Source: a virus (taxonomy: Duplodnaviria > Heunggongvirae > Uroviricota > Caudoviricetes). From it: 54,361 nt of DNA. The notes beneath the pieces are model-generated. The model did not search any database, had not been told where the DNA came from, and saw only the letters and a list, made by a program, of their open reading frames with translations. The stretch's first letter is position 1. The number at the start of each line of letters is the position of its first letter. Of the stretch, positions 1 through 22,304 are shown in pieces. The DNA is taken from the IMG/VR virus record IMGVR_UViG_2925919700_000001; one strand, given 5' to 3'. Position numbers and translations under genes: made by a program.

Positions 1-270
1 ATGGAAAATCTACTTTTTGTGATGTGTTGGATTAAAGATCATCATGTGATGTCATTAACTTTTGGCGTCTTATCTGCAATTTTATGGATTAAATCTGCTA
101 CAGCAAAAGTTGAGTTAGGCAAAAAAATTGTCATGGTTACGTATGAAGATCCCGAACTTAACGTGAATCTCCATGATTTCTTCGCCACTGCGCGGCTTCA
201 ATCTAAGTACAATTCATTTGCAGCATTGTCTGCAGCAGCAACCGCGCTATTCCAGATTATTGGTTTGTAA
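1..270 (+). CDS. Hypothetical small protein, window-edge ORF in AT-rich DNA, possibly partial
   Basis: 89-aa ORF beginning exactly at position 1; hydrophobic stretches; no recognisable motif. Confidence 0.2.
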   Translation: MENLLFVMCWIKDHHVMSLTFGVLSAILWIKSATAKVELGKKIVMVTYEDPELNVNLHDFFATARLQSKYNSFAALSAAATALFQIIGL

Positions 271-407
271 TGCTTACCAGCCCCAAATTAATCAATACCC
301 AGTGGTATTAGCAATGTCCATTTCAAGTACATACGTTCTTAAGACATTTGGGCACTGTCATGTCTGTCGGGGAGGAGGTTAAAATCCTCTCGTGCAAAAT
401 TTCTTAG

Positions 408-770
408 CTAGAGAATACAAAGAACATCATCTGGTGTTAACACAGAGTCTTCTACGTACTCAGGGTGGTTACGTAATACATCTCTCTGATGTCTCAAGAT
501 CTGCGCTGGAATTTCTTGCTCATCCACAATTTTGGCAGTATCCAGCAAAATACTGCCACACCTTATTTCCAGCGAAACAAAGCGATTCCACTCTGGACCA
601 TTAGAACACAAAAGGTCAAACAAAACCTCACCTGTAGCCTGTGAATTGCCCAGTATAACAGAAAGCCTCTTCTCGATTTCGTGAACTGAAGTCAAGGGGT
701 TCTCGTAGCCAGTCGCCATAACGACGGCAATGAGAGCCCCTGAGACGTTAACACCTGTTATTTCAAACAA
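408..770 (-). CDS. rnlB: RnlB/LsoB-like antitoxin
   Basis: 120-aa ORF immediately downstream of the RnlA-like gene, overlapping it by 8 nt. Size and toxin-then-antitoxin order match rnlAB; sequence matches recalled RnlB. Confidence 0.55.
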   Translation of the reverse strand: MFEITGVNVSGALIAVVMATGYENPLTSVHEIEKRLSVILGNSQATGEVLFDLLCSNGPEWNRFVSLEIRCGSILLDTAKIVDEQEIPAQILRHQRDVLRNHPEYVEDSVLTPDDVLCIL

Positions 771-1833
771 TATACAAATCCTTAATAATTCCCCATGCCT
801 GTCTGGCCTTAGTCATCAGTCGTGCCATGTCAGAAACCATACGGCTTGTGTCGACAACTATCTCCATATGAAACAGGCCATGACGTTCTCTGTTAAAGAA
901 AGTATAGGCATCATTAATGGTCTTAACCTTAGCTGACGATAAATTGCGTCCAAATTGTTGTTTCAGAATAAATTCACTCCCAATTTTATCAAAATAAGGC
1001 CCGAAACCATCCTGCGTGATTGGCATGCCATATCGGTACATTGTTGATTTAAGTACTCCCTCAACTGAACGTAATTCAGGATACAACAACATACAGTAAT
1101 CGGGTAAATCGGGGGCGGCGAGTTTAACACACAGCCCAGAAACGAGCAATTTTTCAACATTCTTATGCAATAGTGGGTACGCATCCCCCATTTCACACTC
1201 TAGATGTGAGCGAGCAACTTCTTTCTGAACTATATACGCTTTGCCATCGTCCTGACGAATGAGAACTTTTTCCAGTCCTTGTAAATCGAGTAGCTCTGAC
1301 AAGTTGAATATAAACACTCTATAACATGACAATGGACGCCCTTGTATTTGTAGTGTTCCATTTCTGTGATGCAGACTAACTGTCAACTCATCCTGAAATT
1401 CTGGCGAATGAATTTTCCACACCGTTGTATGAGTGTTCCGTAAGTATTCGTAAAATTGTATATGTGGCTGCTCTGCTGAGAGCTGAAGTACAGATAAAAC
1501 GTTCGCTTCAACGAACCCTTGTAACACCATATTTACCTGTTCAAATTCTGCAGGATTGATGGTTTCATAGAGATTATCAGCCAACTCTTTTCCAAGATTA
1601 CGATTAGCTCCTGTTTGATACTGGACTGTAGACGTCCCTCCGTTATTATAGAAAATGTTAACAGTTGCCAAAGCTTCTCCTGGTTTAGCAAACACAACCC
1701 GAAGTCCTGCTCTTGCACCAGGCATTGGTCCAATTGAATGGACGGAATAGTTTTTATTTTCAATAAATGCCCTAGACGTAGCCTCAATAGTTGTCCGATC
1801 TAAATTTAAATTAGTGTAGTTCCTGACTGTCAT
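763..1833 (-). CDS. rnlA: RnlA/LsoA-like endoribonuclease toxin (RNase LS family)
   Basis: 357 aa from the internal Met (MTVRNYTNLNL...), the size of RnlA; strong resemblance to recalled RnlA along the full length. The listed ORF has a 37-aa upstream extension that is probably not translated. Confidence 0.6.
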   Translation of the reverse strand: MTVRNYTNLNLDRTTIEATSRAFIENKNYSVHSIGPMPGARAGLRVVFAKPGEALATVNIFYNNGGTSTVQYQTGANRNLGKELADNLYETINPAEFEQVNMVLQGFVEANVLSVLQLSAEQPHIQFYEYLRNTHTTVWKIHSPEFQDELTVSLHHRNGTLQIQGRPLSCYRVFIFNLSELLDLQGLEKVLIRQDDGKAYIVQKEVARSHLECEMGDAYPLLHKNVEKLLVSGLCVKLAAPDLPDYCMLLYPELRSVEGVLKSTMYRYGMPITQDGFGPYFDKIGSEFILKQQFGRNLSSAKVKTINDAYTFFNRERHGLFHMEIVVDTSRMVSDMARLMTKARQAWGIIKDLYIV

Positions 1834-1892
1834 TTGCTTAACCCTATAAAAAACTTTAGCAAACTCTACAATATAGCCCCTCTTTAGTCTAA

Positions 1893-2160
1893 TCAGGCGC
1901 TGTATCCTGAAATCGGGTACCGATAATATCCCTCCTGCAGCCATGTGTTGGTGTTAACAAGATACTGTGTATCAATTGAATCCGTCAGATTGCAAAAGTT
2001 GATGCCTCTTTCGCGCAGTTCCTCCACCAGCACGACAAGATGCCGCATACTGCGCCTCAGTCGATCCAGTTTCCAGACCACCAGAGTGTCACCTGCCGAT
2101 AATGTCCTGAGAAATTTTTTAGCCCGGGTCTTTCGGGCGTTGTAACGCTGATTTTATCTT
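1893..2160 (-). pseudogene. Remnant of a Gin/Pin/Hin-type serine DNA invertase (N-terminally truncated, frameshifted, C-terminus replaced)
   Basis: Translation gives ...FEDKIS..RPGLK in one frame and VWKLDRLRRSMRHLVVLVEELRERGINF..LTDSIDT in another, matching the invertase core; the catalytic-Ser N-terminus and the C-terminal HTH are missing. Confidence 0.6.
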
Positions 2161-2233
2161 CAAAATCAGCGCGCATTCTTCTTAGGCCAGCAAGTTCTTA
2201 TATGTGACGTGACTGTGGCTACAACAGATACGA

Positions 2234-2818
2234 TTATTCCATAACAGGGCTTGCAGGCCACTCAATATCCGGTGCAGTTGATGTATCAACACGGTTCAGC
2301 AACACCCGATACTTTTTCCAGGCTTCCAGCAACGAGGTTTCTCCCTCCGTTGCGATTTCCAGATCTGCAGCATCCTGAAGTGGCGCAATATGCTCACTGG
2401 CTACCTGCATCAGGCTGTTTTTTGTTTCTTCCGCCTCCCGGATCCGAAACAGTTTTTCTGCTTCTGCATCTTTCACCCAGGCTGTGCCGTTCCACTTCTG
2501 AAACTCCCCTTCCGGGGATAACCAGGTGACATTTTCCGGTAATGAGCCGAGTTCAGAAATAAATAACGCGTCGCCGGAAGCCACGTCATAGACGGTTTTA
2601 CCCCGATGGTCTTCAACGAGATGCCACGATGCCTCATCACTGTTGAAAACAGCCACAAAGCCAGCAGGAATATCTGGCGGTGCAATATCGGTACTGTTTG
2701 CTGGCAGACCTGTATGAGGCGGAATATATGCGTCACCTTCACCAATAAATTCATTAGTTCCGGCCAGCAGATTATAAATTTTTATGGTCCGTGCTTGTTC
2801 ACTCATTCTGAATGCCAT
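2234..2818 (-). CDS. tfa: Tail fiber assembly protein
   Basis: 194 aa, the size of lambda Tfa; lies immediately downstream of the tail-fiber gene; Tfa-like sequence. Confidence 0.8.
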
Positions 2819-5800
2819 TATGCAAGCCTCACAATATAGTTAAATGCGATGTTTTTGACGGTGTTTTCCGCGTTACCAGCAGCGTTAACGGTGATGGTGT
2901 GTCCATGTGAGCCAATCGCAACGGAGTGCGTATGAGCACCAATACCGACAGTATGTGCGTGTGCACCTGCAGATGCTGCTGTGCCGCTGACACTATGAGT
3001 GTGCGCTCCTGCAGCACTTGTATTCACACTGGCCGCAGACACAACCTTATGTACTGACCCATTTTGTGACCACTGGCTGACTGCTGATGCGCCTGTGACA
3101 CTATGAGTATGGTTTCCGGCACTTGCGGCTGTACCGCTCACACTGTGTGTATGTGCCCCGGTGTTATTCGTAGATTTAGTGCCGTAATCAAACGACGATG
3201 TGGTTTTCGTACCCAAATCCGTACTGGATGCGCTGGCGCTGTGGGTGTGCGATTTAATACCGTCCTGTTCCTGAGACAATACGGCCCGACCACTGGCAGG
3301 TTTGCCCTTAATCGTCCAGCCACGCATATCAGGGATCACGCCTGACGGATAAGCGGCTGCAAGTTTCGGGTAAGCAGATTTGTCAAAAGTCTGCCCCTGC
3401 ATCAGGGCATAGCCAGACGGAACGGTATCTGATGGCCACGGGATTGGTGCACCGACTGGATAAAACTCTGCAGGAGGATGAGCTGAGGTGTAAAGCTGCG
3501 CCCACGGCGACCAGTTTGCGTCGGTCGTATCCCGTCGTGAACGAATAAATGCCGGAGCATGAGCACCGCTTGTACCACTCCAGCCGATGAGTAACTCACC
3601 TTCGCCAACGGCTGTCATCCCTTTCAGGTGAATGATATTTCCATACGCTGTTGGATATCCGTTGTTATACACCTCGTATAACTCAAGACCTGTTGCCCCC
3701 TGCGTATTGTCTGTAAGCGCGGTTACCCGACCTTTTGAAGCCAGATTAACTGATGATACTGCTGTTCCACCTGACGGTAACGCCCCGATCTCTGATGCCG
3801 TTGGCTTATTTCTGGAGTTATAGTCCCTTCGCCAGCCAGGTGAATAATCTGTTCCGTGATTAATATAGGTAAACTGGGCGTTAGTTGTTCCACCACCAGT
3901 GGAGGTGGTCGGTGTGGTAATGCGGATCGTCATCGCTGACTTTATCCCCATTACTTCAATGACAGCTCCGGCGAGATGAATATTACCGCAACCAGTATCA
4001 GTAATGATTTTATTATTGCCATAAGACCAGGAACCCTTGCACATCCAGTATGGATGGTTAAATGCTCCCTGAGAATCCAGCCACTCGATAAACTGTGCAG
4101 TCGTCCAGTCTCCTGTTGTTGTGCTTACTGACCCACCGAAGGCACGGCAGGCACCAATATTTTTCGTAAAGGTGTCTTTGCCAGGGATATCCGCACCGTT
4201 CTGATCTTTCTGCAGACGTTTCTCAGCATTGTCATTGGCTGCTTTTACTGCCTTTGGCGTTGCCGCCAGCGTTTCAGACGTGCTGTTGGTCGCGCTGCTT
4301 AGTTGGACTATCCCTTTCTGTGCTGTCGTTGCATCCTGTGCGGTGTATTTCCCGTTAGCCAGGTCATACGCGGCCTTAACTGCTTTTGGCGTTGCCGCCA
4401 GTGACTCGGAAGTGCTGTTGTTCGCACTGCTGAGCTGTACTACCCCCTTTTTCGTCGTGCTCGCATCCTCAAGCGCCACAGCGGATGCAATATCCTCTGC
4501 CCGTTTTGCCGCTGTCTCGGCGCGCGTTGCCGCGGATTCTGCCGTACTTTTGCTCTGTGCTGCCGCCGTCGCACTGCCAGCTGCCTCTGTCGCCTTCGTG
4601 GATGCCGTCGTGGCGCTACCCTTCGCTGCTGACGCTTGTCTGGTCGCCTCATCTTTTGAAGCAGACGCCGATGAGGCCGATGACGCCGCCGAACTGGCGG
4701 ACGATGCGGCAGCCGTTTTTGAGGATTCTGCGCTGGTTTCCGACGCTTTCGCGTTCGTTTCGGATGTCTTCGCTGCGGAAGCAGAACTCGCTGCTGCGCT
4801 GGCCTGTTCAGTGGCTTCGCCAGCCTTCGTTGTGGCTGTTGAAGCGGATGATGCGGCACTTTCTGCCGACTTTCCGGCAGCGGTGGCACTGGCTGAGGCC
4901 TGCCCGGCACTTGTTGACGCGGCGCTGGCAGATGATGCAGCCGCTGTTTTTGAGTCTGCTGCTGCGGAGGCACTCTGTTCCGCTGCCGTTTCAGAAGACT
5001 TAGCGTTCGTCTCGGACGTTTTTGCCGCCTTCGCGGAATTTCCTGCCGCCGTTGCCGAGGAAGCTGCGCTACTGGCGCTCAAGGATGCGTTCGTTTCTGA
5101 TGATTTCGCTGCCTCTTTTGAGGCCGCCGCATCCCGGGCTGAGGAGGCAGCTTCTGACGCTTTCGTGGTCGCGGTGGATGCAGAAGTGGCGGCTGATTGT
5201 TGTGACGCTGCCGCATTCGTTTCTGACGTTTTCGCCGCACCGGCACTGGTAGCCGCCGCGCTTTTTGAGGACTCTGCAGCGGCAGCACTTTTTGATGCTT
5301 CAGTGGCCTTTGTTGATGCCGTTCCTGCGCTGGAAGACGCTGACTGAGCCGACGACGCGGCCTGTCCGGCTGACGTGCTGGCTGCGCGTGCTGAGTCCGC
5401 AGCATCAGTCGCATGGGTTGCCGCCTCACGGGCTGATGTGCTGGCATCACTGGCTGACTTCTTCGCGGCTGCCGTGTTCTGTGCCACCGCGGACGCGTTA
5501 CGCGCCACCTCTTCCACCATCAGCTCAAAACGGCGCAGTGCCTCCGGACGGGCATCATCCTCCGTCATGGCACCGAGAAAATCATTCAGCGTACCGGGTT
5601 GAGAATCTTCATACACGGTGATGGTCCCGGCATGTGACGGCGGGAATCCTTCCACCAACAGAATAACGCTGTACTGACCGTACTCAACGTCCATGCTGTA
5701 ACGCCCGGCTTCATCCGGATTTTCTGAGGCCAGCGTGTTCACCACCACCGTGGTGCTGTTACGTTTTGCTTTCAGCTGGATTGTGCAGTTCTGTACCGGT

Positions 5801-5844
5801 TTTCCTGTGCCGTCTTTCAGTACACCTGAAATCTTTACTGCCAT
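2818..5844 (-). CDS. stf: Side tail fiber protein with long Ala/Ser-rich periodic repeats and C-terminal His-rich GAHTHS repeats
   Basis: N-terminus [20 protein letters not shown] is lambda Stf-like; ATG at 5844 preferred over the GTG at 5850; low-complexity repeat region 4.2-5.5 kb. Confidence 0.8.
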
Positions 5845-5851
5845 ATTCACC

Positions 5852-5882
5852 CCACAAAAAAGCCCGCCTGAACCGGCGGGCT
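5852..5882 (-). terminator. Intrinsic terminator downstream of lom
   Basis: Hairpin GCCCGCC-tgaac-GGCGGGC followed on the minus strand by a T-run. Confidence 0.5.
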
Positions 5883-5908
5883 GTCATAACACTGTGTTAC
5901 CTGGCTAA

Positions 5909-6508
5909 TCAGAACTTATAACCGACACCCACGATGAAACCGTCAGTGCGCCAGTCGCCACTGCCGGAGCCTTCATAAGCAATATCAATGGCCACGGATT
6001 CGGTCGGGTTAAACTGCACGCCAGCTCCCCACGCCAGAGACGTGTTGCTGTGGCGACCGTCATCACTTCCGGTCAGTACATCGTGCGTTTTCCCCTTGTT
6101 GTCAGTTACGCGAAGATAATCCCCGGAGAAAGTCGACACACGGCTGTAAGCCACACCCGCCATCGCATACGCGCTGAACCATTCATTCACGCGCACAGAC
6201 GGCCCCGCCATCACGCTGAACCAGCGGTTACGCACGGAATCTTCATGCCAGCGGGTATCGCTGTAATGGGTCAGCTGGCGATTCTTGTCTCCTGCATAGC
6301 TGAATGACGTCACCATCCCCAGTGTGTCCGTAAACTCATAACGGTATTTCACGTTAATCCCGTTCAGATCATCACTGCCGGGAACGTTCGTCCGGGCATG
6401 AAGATACCCCGCGCTCAGTGTGGACTGATGTTCAGACGCCCATGCAGGCGCACCGGATACGGCCAGACAAATGGCTGCGGACAAAATGGCGGCATAAAGT
6501 TTACGCAT
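5909..6508 (-). CDS. lom: Lom/Ail-family outer membrane beta-barrel protein
   Basis: 199 aa with signal peptide, C-terminal ...GVGYKF beta-barrel ending, and the lambda position between J and stf. Confidence 0.8.
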   Translation of the reverse strand: MRKLYAAILSAAICLAVSGAPAWASEHQSTLSAGYLHARTNVPGSDDLNGINVKYRYEFTDTLGMVTSFSYAGDKNRQLTHYSDTRWHEDSVRNRWFSVMAGPSVRVNEWFSAYAMAGVAYSRVSTFSGDYLRVTDNKGKTHDVLTGSDDGRHSNTSLAWGAGVQFNPTESVAIDIAYEGSGSGDWRTDGFIVGVGYKF

Positions 6509-6530
6509 AATTACCTCTCGCTTTTCTGCA

Positions 6531-6557
6531 ATAAAAAAGGCGTCATTTCTGACGCCC
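6531..6557 (-). terminator. Intrinsic terminator between J and lom
   Basis: Hairpin GGCGTCA-gaaa-TGACGCC followed by T6 on the minus strand. Confidence 0.5.
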
Positions 6558-6574
6558 GTTATGGGTTATAAAAT

Positions 6575-9976
<3,402 letters not shown>

Positions 9977-22086: not shown

Positions 22087-22304
22087 CAGAACCTCGCCAG
22101 CCGGTACCCGGGATGCCCCCGTCGTCGTGTAATCAGAGCCGCAAGGCGGCGCTCCCACTCCTGCCGTCCCTGCCGGATCTCAGATAAGTTTTCCATGGTC
22201 ATCTGCTGACCATTAAAGGTGACGGATTTTCCGTCCAGCACCGCCATTTCAGCTTCCATATAACACTGAATCATGGCTTCGATATCATTCTGGTTCATAA
22301 CCAT
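22086..22304 (-). CDS. W: gpW-like head-tail joining protein
   Basis: 72-aa ORF directly after the terminase large subunit, ending ...RRRGHPGYRLARF, similar to the lambda W C-terminus. Confidence 0.5.
   Translation of the reverse strand: MVMNQNDIEAMIQCYMEAEMAVLDGKSVTFNGQQMTMENLSEIRQGRQEWERRLAALITRRRGHPGYRLARF

Follow-up and report, generated by a model that had tools for sequence, protein, structure and literature searches.

The DNA analysed here is the IMG/VR virus record IMGVR_UViG_2925919700_000001, a stretch of 54,361 nucleotides (hereafter, the window) assigned to the Caudoviricetes. Close to its left end, and all on the minus strand, lie the genes of a toxin–antitoxin (TA) pair of the RnlA–RnlB type, rnlB (408–770) and rnlA (763–1833), a remnant of a Pin/Gin-type serine invertase gene, pin (1968–2164), and the tail fibre assembly gene tfa (2234–2818). 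An initial annotation, made without database searches, had described positions 408–2160 as an rnlAB-like pair that replaced the 3′ end of a decayed tail-fibre invertase gene. The pair is of a known kind and is already annotated in public genomes, where RefSeq names its products an RnlA family toxin (WP_024190590.1) and an RnlB family antitoxin (WP_000461705.1).

At its full extent the rnlA open reading frame (ORF) occupies positions 763–1944 and encodes 393 amino acids from the most distal ATG. This extended product was rejected as the real toxin, since homology to the Escherichia coli K-12 protein and a conserved ribosome-binding site point to the ATG at position 1833 as the start, in agreement with the RefSeq annotation. 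The resulting protein of 356 amino acids carries a one-residue deletion relative to K-12 RnlA (357 amino acids), with which it shares 71.7% identity in a full-length global alignment. Four Pfam profiles matched it in the correct order and above their gathering cut-offs: RnlA_toxin_N (PF19417, E-value 1.8e-22), RnlA_toxin (PF15935, 7e-19), RnlA-toxin_DBD (PF19034, 1.5e-33) and HEPN_RnaseLS (PF18869, 3.3e-12). The three-domain architecture (NTD, NRD and C-terminal HEPN/Dmd-binding domain) is thus present. Comparison with the solved RnlA structures 4i8o and 6y2p gave E-values of about 1e-168 (7.8e-168 for 4i8o_A, across residues 2–357). In the alignment, the HEPN catalytic set, consisting of R255, E258 and the equivalents of R318 and H323 (Rx4-6H), is conserved in the segments LLYPELRSVEG and FFNRERHGLFHME; all four residues were found by mutagenesis to be essential for RnlA (PMC8266594). 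Alignment with K-12 RnlA likewise showed conservation of the dimer-interface residues V206 and D245, which were mutated in the same work to probe the transition between dimer states (PMC8266594).

The rnlB gene encodes 120 amino acids, starts with TTG and lies directly downstream of the toxin gene, whose stop codon it overlaps by 8 nt (TTGTTTGA), precisely the overlap of the K-12 genes; the junction sequence as a whole, ATTGTTTGAAAT, is identical to the K-12 junction. The product matched Pfam RnlB_antitoxin (PF15933) with an E-value of 3.5e-24 and the RnlB chain 6y2p_C with 4.4e-51, and its global identity to K-12 RnlB is 66.9%. The coupled 120-amino-acid RnlB-like antitoxin proposed in the initial annotation was therefore found as described. 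The identity of the toxin held as well, and the sole discrepancy concerned its length, which had been given as 357 amino acids. Alignment to RnlA/RnlB and LsoA/LsoB had been put forward there as a check; the LsoA structure 5hy3 matched the window toxin with an E-value of 4.4e-14, far more distant than RnlA.

Homology to K-12 rnlAB extends beyond the coding sequences. By blastn it covers window positions 424–1880 at 72.9% identity, and pairwise alignment showed that the 47 bp immediately upstream of rnlA (1834–1880) are conserved with K-12. This leader block holds TATTGTAGAGTTT and the ribosome-binding site, and it may include a putative −10 promoter element. Further upstream lies a spacer (1881–1964) that travels with the module: comparison of genomes found it identical in E. 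coli strain 5CRE51 and in two IMG/VR prophage contigs, with no counterpart in K-12 rnlAB, in pin or in the related prophage of strain 98233. A terminator scan gave nothing above shuffled expectation, and no minus-strand terminator-like site was seen between tfa and rnlA, so that read-through from the late operon is possible.

The closest characterised relative of the pair is the K-12 RnlA–RnlB system (RNase LS), with which it shares the three-domain toxin, the antitoxin family, the toxin-first gene order, the TTG start, the 8-nt overlap and the catalytic residues. The two systems come from the same species, and the K-12 pair resides in a mobile element, CP4-57, that uses the same ssrA integration site as the window prophage. 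They differ in sequence (identities of 72% for RnlA, 67% for RnlB and 73% at the nucleotide level), in the length of RnlA, which is one residue shorter in the window, and in RnlB, which is three residues shorter and has a different C-terminal tail. The flanks are also distinct: the window module lies between an 89-amino-acid ORF and the pin relic beside lambdoid tail-fibre genes, whereas the K-12 module lies between yfjM/abpAB and yfjP. Finally, the window module is 0.7 kb from ssrA and the K-12 module 10 kb, in opposite orientations relative to ssrA. Both known E. coli rnlAB alleles are found in mobile elements at the ssrA integration site (K-12 locus L017, 1094–12856; window, 408–1833). The LsoA–LsoB system of the E. 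coli O157:H7 plasmid pOSAK1 belongs to the same toxin superfamily and follows the same anti-T4, Dmd-sensitive logic (PMC5308261). It is plasmid-borne, and the window pair plainly belongs with RnlAB and not with LsoAB.

Upstream of the toxin gene, translation of positions 1831–2240 yields a resolvase-like peptide in two frames that ends in ...LTDSIDT. A tblastn search with PinE of the K-12 element e14 (184 amino acids) matched residues 46–96 at positions 1968–2120 with 92% identity and residues 31–48 at positions 2111–2164 in the other frame. The relic therefore corresponds to PinE residues 31–96. Residues 1–30, which include the catalytic Ser10 region (MLIGYVRVST) of the N-terminal catalytic domain, are missing, as are residues 97–184 with the C-terminal helix-turn-helix DNA-binding domain, and of the Pfam Resolvase profile only positions 68–106 were matched. 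The relic shifts frame between 2111 and 2120; a five-way DNA alignment located a 1-nt deletion near 2120/2121 and a second deletion in a T-run near 2165–2168; the 5′ limit of DNA homology lies at about 2173–2185. RefSeq flags the same gene as frameshifted and missing both its N- and C-terminus. Lacking every defining feature of a working Pin/Gin invertase, the relic is a pseudogene. The initial annotation, which had reported a Gin/Pin-type invertase without its catalytic N-terminus, frameshifted and losing homology after ...LTDSIDT, agrees with the tblastn result on each of these points.

The point at which pin homology stops was placed at window positions 1965–1969 by the five-way alignment, megablast and tblastn. 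Homology ends after PinE codon 96 (…TCAATTGATAC/ACAG…, i.e., GATAC/ACAG); megablast matches to pinE genes begin at 1963–1965, and the tblastn homology ends at 1968. On the other side of the relic, tfa (Pfam Caudo_TAP, 7.2e-44, and existing annotation) is the final structural gene of the prophage that is intact, and its 3′ end runs straight into the 5′-truncated pin relic, a junction that is common to strains 98233 and XYEH3314. A search of window positions 1–6600 for an invertible segment found no convincing inverted repeats and no reversed tfa′/stf′ genes, which are present in e14 and in 5CRE51.

The origin of this arrangement can be approached by comparison with related prophages. Strain 98233 harbours a related prophage at the same ssrA site, whose pin gene has the identical 5′ truncation and 1-nt deletions and keeps its natural stop codon. 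That copy corresponds to PinE residues 29–184 and is followed by three unrelated ORFs in place of rnlAB; window homology to it resumes at position 1963. Strain 5CRE51 and two IMG/VR prophage contigs, on the other hand, match window positions 1–2179 at 99%. In all three the rnlAB module is joined at the same pin codon 96, pin residues 1–96 are uninterrupted (MLIGYVRVST...), and the inverted gp53-like/tfa gene pair still adjoins pin. At sites that distinguish these two kinds of prophage, window positions 2172–2085 are of the 98233 type (14 of 17 sites) and positions 2019–1969 of the 5CRE51 type (six of six), with a 65-bp stretch between them that is identical in the window, 98233 and 5CRE51. By this pattern the window relic is a recombinant of the 98233 and 5CRE51 lineages, with the crossover placed between 2084 and 2020. 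The 5′ decay of pin (the truncation and the 1-nt deletions) is an independent and older event, common to prophages without rnlAB. The replaced segment measures about 2.1 kb, reaching from just past the ssrA-type attachment (att) repeat to about position 1965, and takes in the 89-amino-acid ORF (1–270) besides rnlAB.

The simplest reading of these data is a history in three steps. In one lineage, the segment of about 2.1 kb carrying the 89-amino-acid ORF, rnlB and rnlA would have replaced pin from codon 97 onwards together with everything up to the att site. In another lineage, pin would have lost its 5′ end and its reading frame. Homologous recombination within the conserved pin core would then have joined the two lineages to give the arrangement seen in the window. 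With pin both truncated and recombined, the invertase and the tail-fibre inversion switch are dead. The initial annotation had suggested that a cassette landed in the invertase locus at the tail-fibre end of the prophage and had proposed related prophages as the test. The takeover of the 3′ part of pin is borne out by 5CRE51, with its intact pin N-terminus, and by 98233, with its intact pin 3′ end; of a discrete mobile cassette inserting there we found no sign. A repeat search revealed no direct repeats flanking the rnlAB segment and no transposase or other signature of an autonomous cassette, and the idea of a transposon-like cassette was dropped because bounding inverted repeats and flanking direct repeats were lacking. 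The segment more probably arrived by recombination between prophages, whether illegitimate or homologous.

The chromosome of strain JJ1886 provides the wider setting. There, the window starts 300 bp past the transfer-messenger RNA gene ssrA, and the order of features is ssrA, the 89-amino-acid ORF, rnlB, rnlA, the pin relic, tfa, stf, lom, J, tail, head and terminase genes, followed by lysis genes, Q, replication genes, repressor, int, an AAA ATPase gene, a DNA adenine methylase gene and glaH. The other boundary of the inserted DNA is marked, after the methylase gene, by 185 bp that repeat the ssrA 3′ end and downstream sequence. The window itself contains no such copy; in JJ1886 the repeat lies past the right end of the window. 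It follows from this gene order that rnlAB occupies a slot with the tail-fibre genes on one side and the att site on the other, which we take to be the counterpart of the b region on the established lambda map.

The same slot holds other cargo elsewhere. In e14 of K-12, the gene that lies between pinE and the att site is the restriction gene mcrA (locus L007, 1796–2629). The two elements thus share a layout of tail-fibre genes, Pin invertase and a defence gene last before the attachment site; in e14, pinE is intact and the stf/tfa invertible segment is present, whereas the window retains only pin residues 31–96 and carries rnlAB in place of mcrA. In XYEH3314, whose prophage lies at another site, next to prfC, a reverse transcriptase-TIR (RT-TIR) gene adjoins a differently truncated pin relic (locus L003, 2132–3736). 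The three ORFs in the 98233 slot are of unknown function, one of them belonging to PHROG 6191 (locus L002, 2815–4539). Like the variable accessory ("moron" or b-region) loci of temperate phages, the slot flanked by tfa and pin therefore holds rnlAB, RT-TIR or unknown ORFs in the handful of cases examined. These few examples suggest that the slot after pin is a hotspot for defence or accessory genes anchored on pin. According to one published study, Pin-type recombinases often adjoin anti-phage genes (PMC12529663).

Of the genes in the slot, the 89-amino-acid ORF (1–270, plus strand) encodes two hydrophobic stretches and matched PHROG 14357, a family of unknown function, over its full length (4e-33). 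It gave no Pfam or NCBIfam match, and tblastn found nothing in deposited phage genomes. The ORF always accompanies the window rnlAB allele and is co-linear with it in JJ1886, 5CRE51 and the dog isolate CUVET24-CCU25. Three chromosomal contexts, as well as the IMG/VR prophage contigs, show the rnlAB module linked to pin. Strain 5CRE51 has the module at a different chromosomal site, next to pin and tail-fibre genes and with an ssrA-3′ att-like repeat in front of it; this tail-fibre end (loci L014 and L016) is near the lsr operon, beside an island with integrase, HsdM and ORC-CDC6 ATPase genes. In strain MEI2O1-23 it is found near paoD, behind IS1 (locus L006). Such tail-fibre ends carrying rnlAB away from ssrA imply large rearrangements or tandem elements.

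In the opposite, far part of the window (51403–54361), int is not adjacent to the att repeat, and the AAA ATPase gene runs off the end. In JJ1886, the AAA ATPase and DNA adenine methylase genes occupy the interval between int and the 185-bp ssrA-3′ repeat (locus L004, 31129–35323), which may be a second cargo locus or the remnant of another element.

Among 5426 complete E. coli genomes, rnlAB of some kind was detected at the DNA level in 436. The window allele, at 99% identity or more and with both ORFs intact, accounts for 73 of them, whose sources were humans, dogs, chickens, one platypus and soil. The other 363 show 60–80% identity, and among the matches listed for them all carry the K-12-type allele. 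The entire arrangement of window positions 1–2900 is common to 62 genomes, including the ST131 strains JJ1886 and JJ1887. Beyond the complete genomes, the window allele is present in two IMG/VR prophage contigs, and a search of plasmids retrieved only distant RnlA/LsoA-like relatives with at most 42% identity. A scan of genome contigs found two loci, both of the K-12 type; it is uninformative because each species is represented there by one genome.

Taken together, we consider that the window encodes a complete rnlA–rnlB type II TA and abortive-infection module, at 72% and 67% identity to the K-12 allele, and that a lambda-like prophage at the ssrA integration site carries this module as cargo at its att-proximal, tail-fibre end; we assign this reading a probability of roughly 80%. 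Several points weigh against it. Toxicity, neutralisation and phage restriction by the window allele are predicted wholly by homology. The antitoxin shares only 67% identity with its K-12 counterpart and has a different C-terminus (120 versus 123 amino acids, the last residues not being alignable), so that cross-talk and stability may differ from K-12. A consensus scan found no σ70-like promoter above shuffled expectation upstream of or within rnlA; promoter-like matches inside rnlA on the minus strand, at 992–965 and 1258–1229, were no more numerous than in shuffled sequence. In K-12, rnlB has an internal promoter within rnlA, about 280 nt upstream of rnlB (PMC5535158). PADLOC-DB contained no match to either protein, and NCBIfam gave only a sub-threshold, irrelevant match for the pair; we read these blanks as gaps in the libraries because the Pfam and solved-structure matches are unambiguous. 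A tblastn search of 50,697 deposited phage genomes found no RnlA homologue, and carriage by an infectious virion is therefore only putative. In the window strain, moreover, an element of 11,280 bp (23412–34691) splits the large terminase gene of the prophage.

The mechanism expected for the module follows that of the RnlAB family (PMC5308261, PMC8266594, PMC5535158). Labile RnlB would hold RnlA, a three-domain HEPN endoribonuclease, in an inactive state, the antitoxin being translated from the downstream gene that overlaps rnlA, with an internal promoter probably contributing as well. Upon infection by a T-even-type phage, host gene expression would be shut off and RnlB would disappear. RnlA would then assemble into the canonical HEPN dimer, in which R255, E258, R318 and H323 meet, and would degrade mRNA, including phage late mRNA, and block the expression of phage late genes, with the infection being aborted unless the phage makes a Dmd-like inhibitor. 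RNase HI likely modulates both activation and repression in the K-12 fashion. In this way the module would exclude competing lytic phages on behalf of the prophage, and a penalty for losing the element would be a by-product.

That penalty might instead be the main function. The pair would then act chiefly as an addiction or stabilisation module that uses post-segregational growth arrest to keep the prophage or ssrA island from being lost, and not in phage defence. Generic TA logic, with a labile antitoxin and a stable toxin (PMC5308261), would fit this function, as would the position of the module at the extreme end of a mobile element, adjoining the att site, and the fact that rearrangements and IS1 events have not separated it from the tail-fibre end. 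We nevertheless regard it as unlikely, since the anti-T4 phenotype of the K-12 orthologue has been demonstrated (PMC5308261, PMC8266594), and since the same slot in related prophages holds dedicated defence genes, namely mcrA and RT-TIR. The stabilisation and defence roles are, in addition, not mutually exclusive.

Somewhat less probable still is that rnlAB is no phage cargo at all and represents the leftover of an older CP4-57-like ssrA island, fused by deletion to the end of a lambdoid prophage that arrived later. The K-12 pair also resides in an ssrA-integrated element, the 89-amino-acid ORF persists alone beside ssrA in the prophage-free strain SW071618, and neither RnlA nor this ORF is carried by any deposited phage genome. 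Yet the orientation relative to ssrA is opposite to that in K-12, the flanks are unrelated and the nucleotide identity is only 73%. In 5CRE51, the module with its att-like repeat adjoins pin and tail fibres at another chromosomal site, in MEI2O1-23 it is again linked to a tail-fibre end, and the IMG/VR prophage predictions include it. The ORF itself belongs to a PHROG, and in SW071618 it is abutted by IS1, an arrangement that fits the deletion of a former prophage. It is very improbable that the module, like the invertase beside it, is a relic in decay that no longer functions: it adjoins a pseudogene and no clear promoter was found, but neither ORF is truncated, the overlap architecture and every catalytic residue are conserved, and 73 genomes share the module at 99% identity or more.

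Within our preferred interpretation of rnlAB as a prophage-borne abortive-infection module, a bolder extension can be formulated. The pin core, even as a pseudogene, might serve as an anchor for homologous recombination by which lambdoid prophages swap defence cargo in the slot flanked by tail-fibre genes and att site, and the rnlAB allele might be truly phage-borne through an inducible ssrA-integrating phage that would be widespread in ST131-type strains such as JJ1886. We hold this proposal only tentatively, and think it has rather less than an even chance of being correct.

Two other features of the window deserve description. The insert in the terminase gene separates a nuclease-domain ORF (22295–23407) from an ATPase-domain ORF (34695–35690); in JJ1886 the gene is unbroken. 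On either side of the insert lies one copy of an imperfect 13-bp direct repeat, ACCCT[C/A]CATCCAG (23399–23411 and 34692–34704). The insert encodes its own tyrosine integrase (33295–34533), a D5-like primase-helicase (29089–30921) and a ClpP-protease/major-capsid fusion (25593–27506), together with a Bro-N protein, SSB, a lambda tail-assembly-I-like protein and a DUF1441 protein. In appearance this element is a phage satellite, or else a second prophage of small size, that entered the packaging gene of the prophage by site-specific integration. The same integrase–terminase junction occurs in 81 of the 5426 E. coli genomes, and satellites residing in prophages have been described (PMC10085698). 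The second feature is the tail-fibre gene of 1010 amino acids (2818–5850, minus strand), whose product has a long, repetitive centre rich in Ala, Ser and Thr; the spacings of the direct repeats are multiples of 21 nt, and the repeats yield long spurious ORFs on the opposite strand, such as the antisense ORF at 4229–5347 (plus strand).

This case leaves the general knowledge of RnlAB and of prophage accessory loci unchanged. It does offer a small worked example of the exchange of defence genes at prophage ends, in which recombination united two independent truncations of one invertase gene and a single slot holds different cargo. Were the allele truly phage-borne, it would provide the first demonstrated case of an RnlAB system carried in a virion. 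For the host, the lysogens, which include clinical strains of the ST131 lineage such as JJ1886, are probably protected against T-even-type phages without a matching Dmd, and this may be of modest relevance to the choice of therapeutic phages against strains of that lineage.

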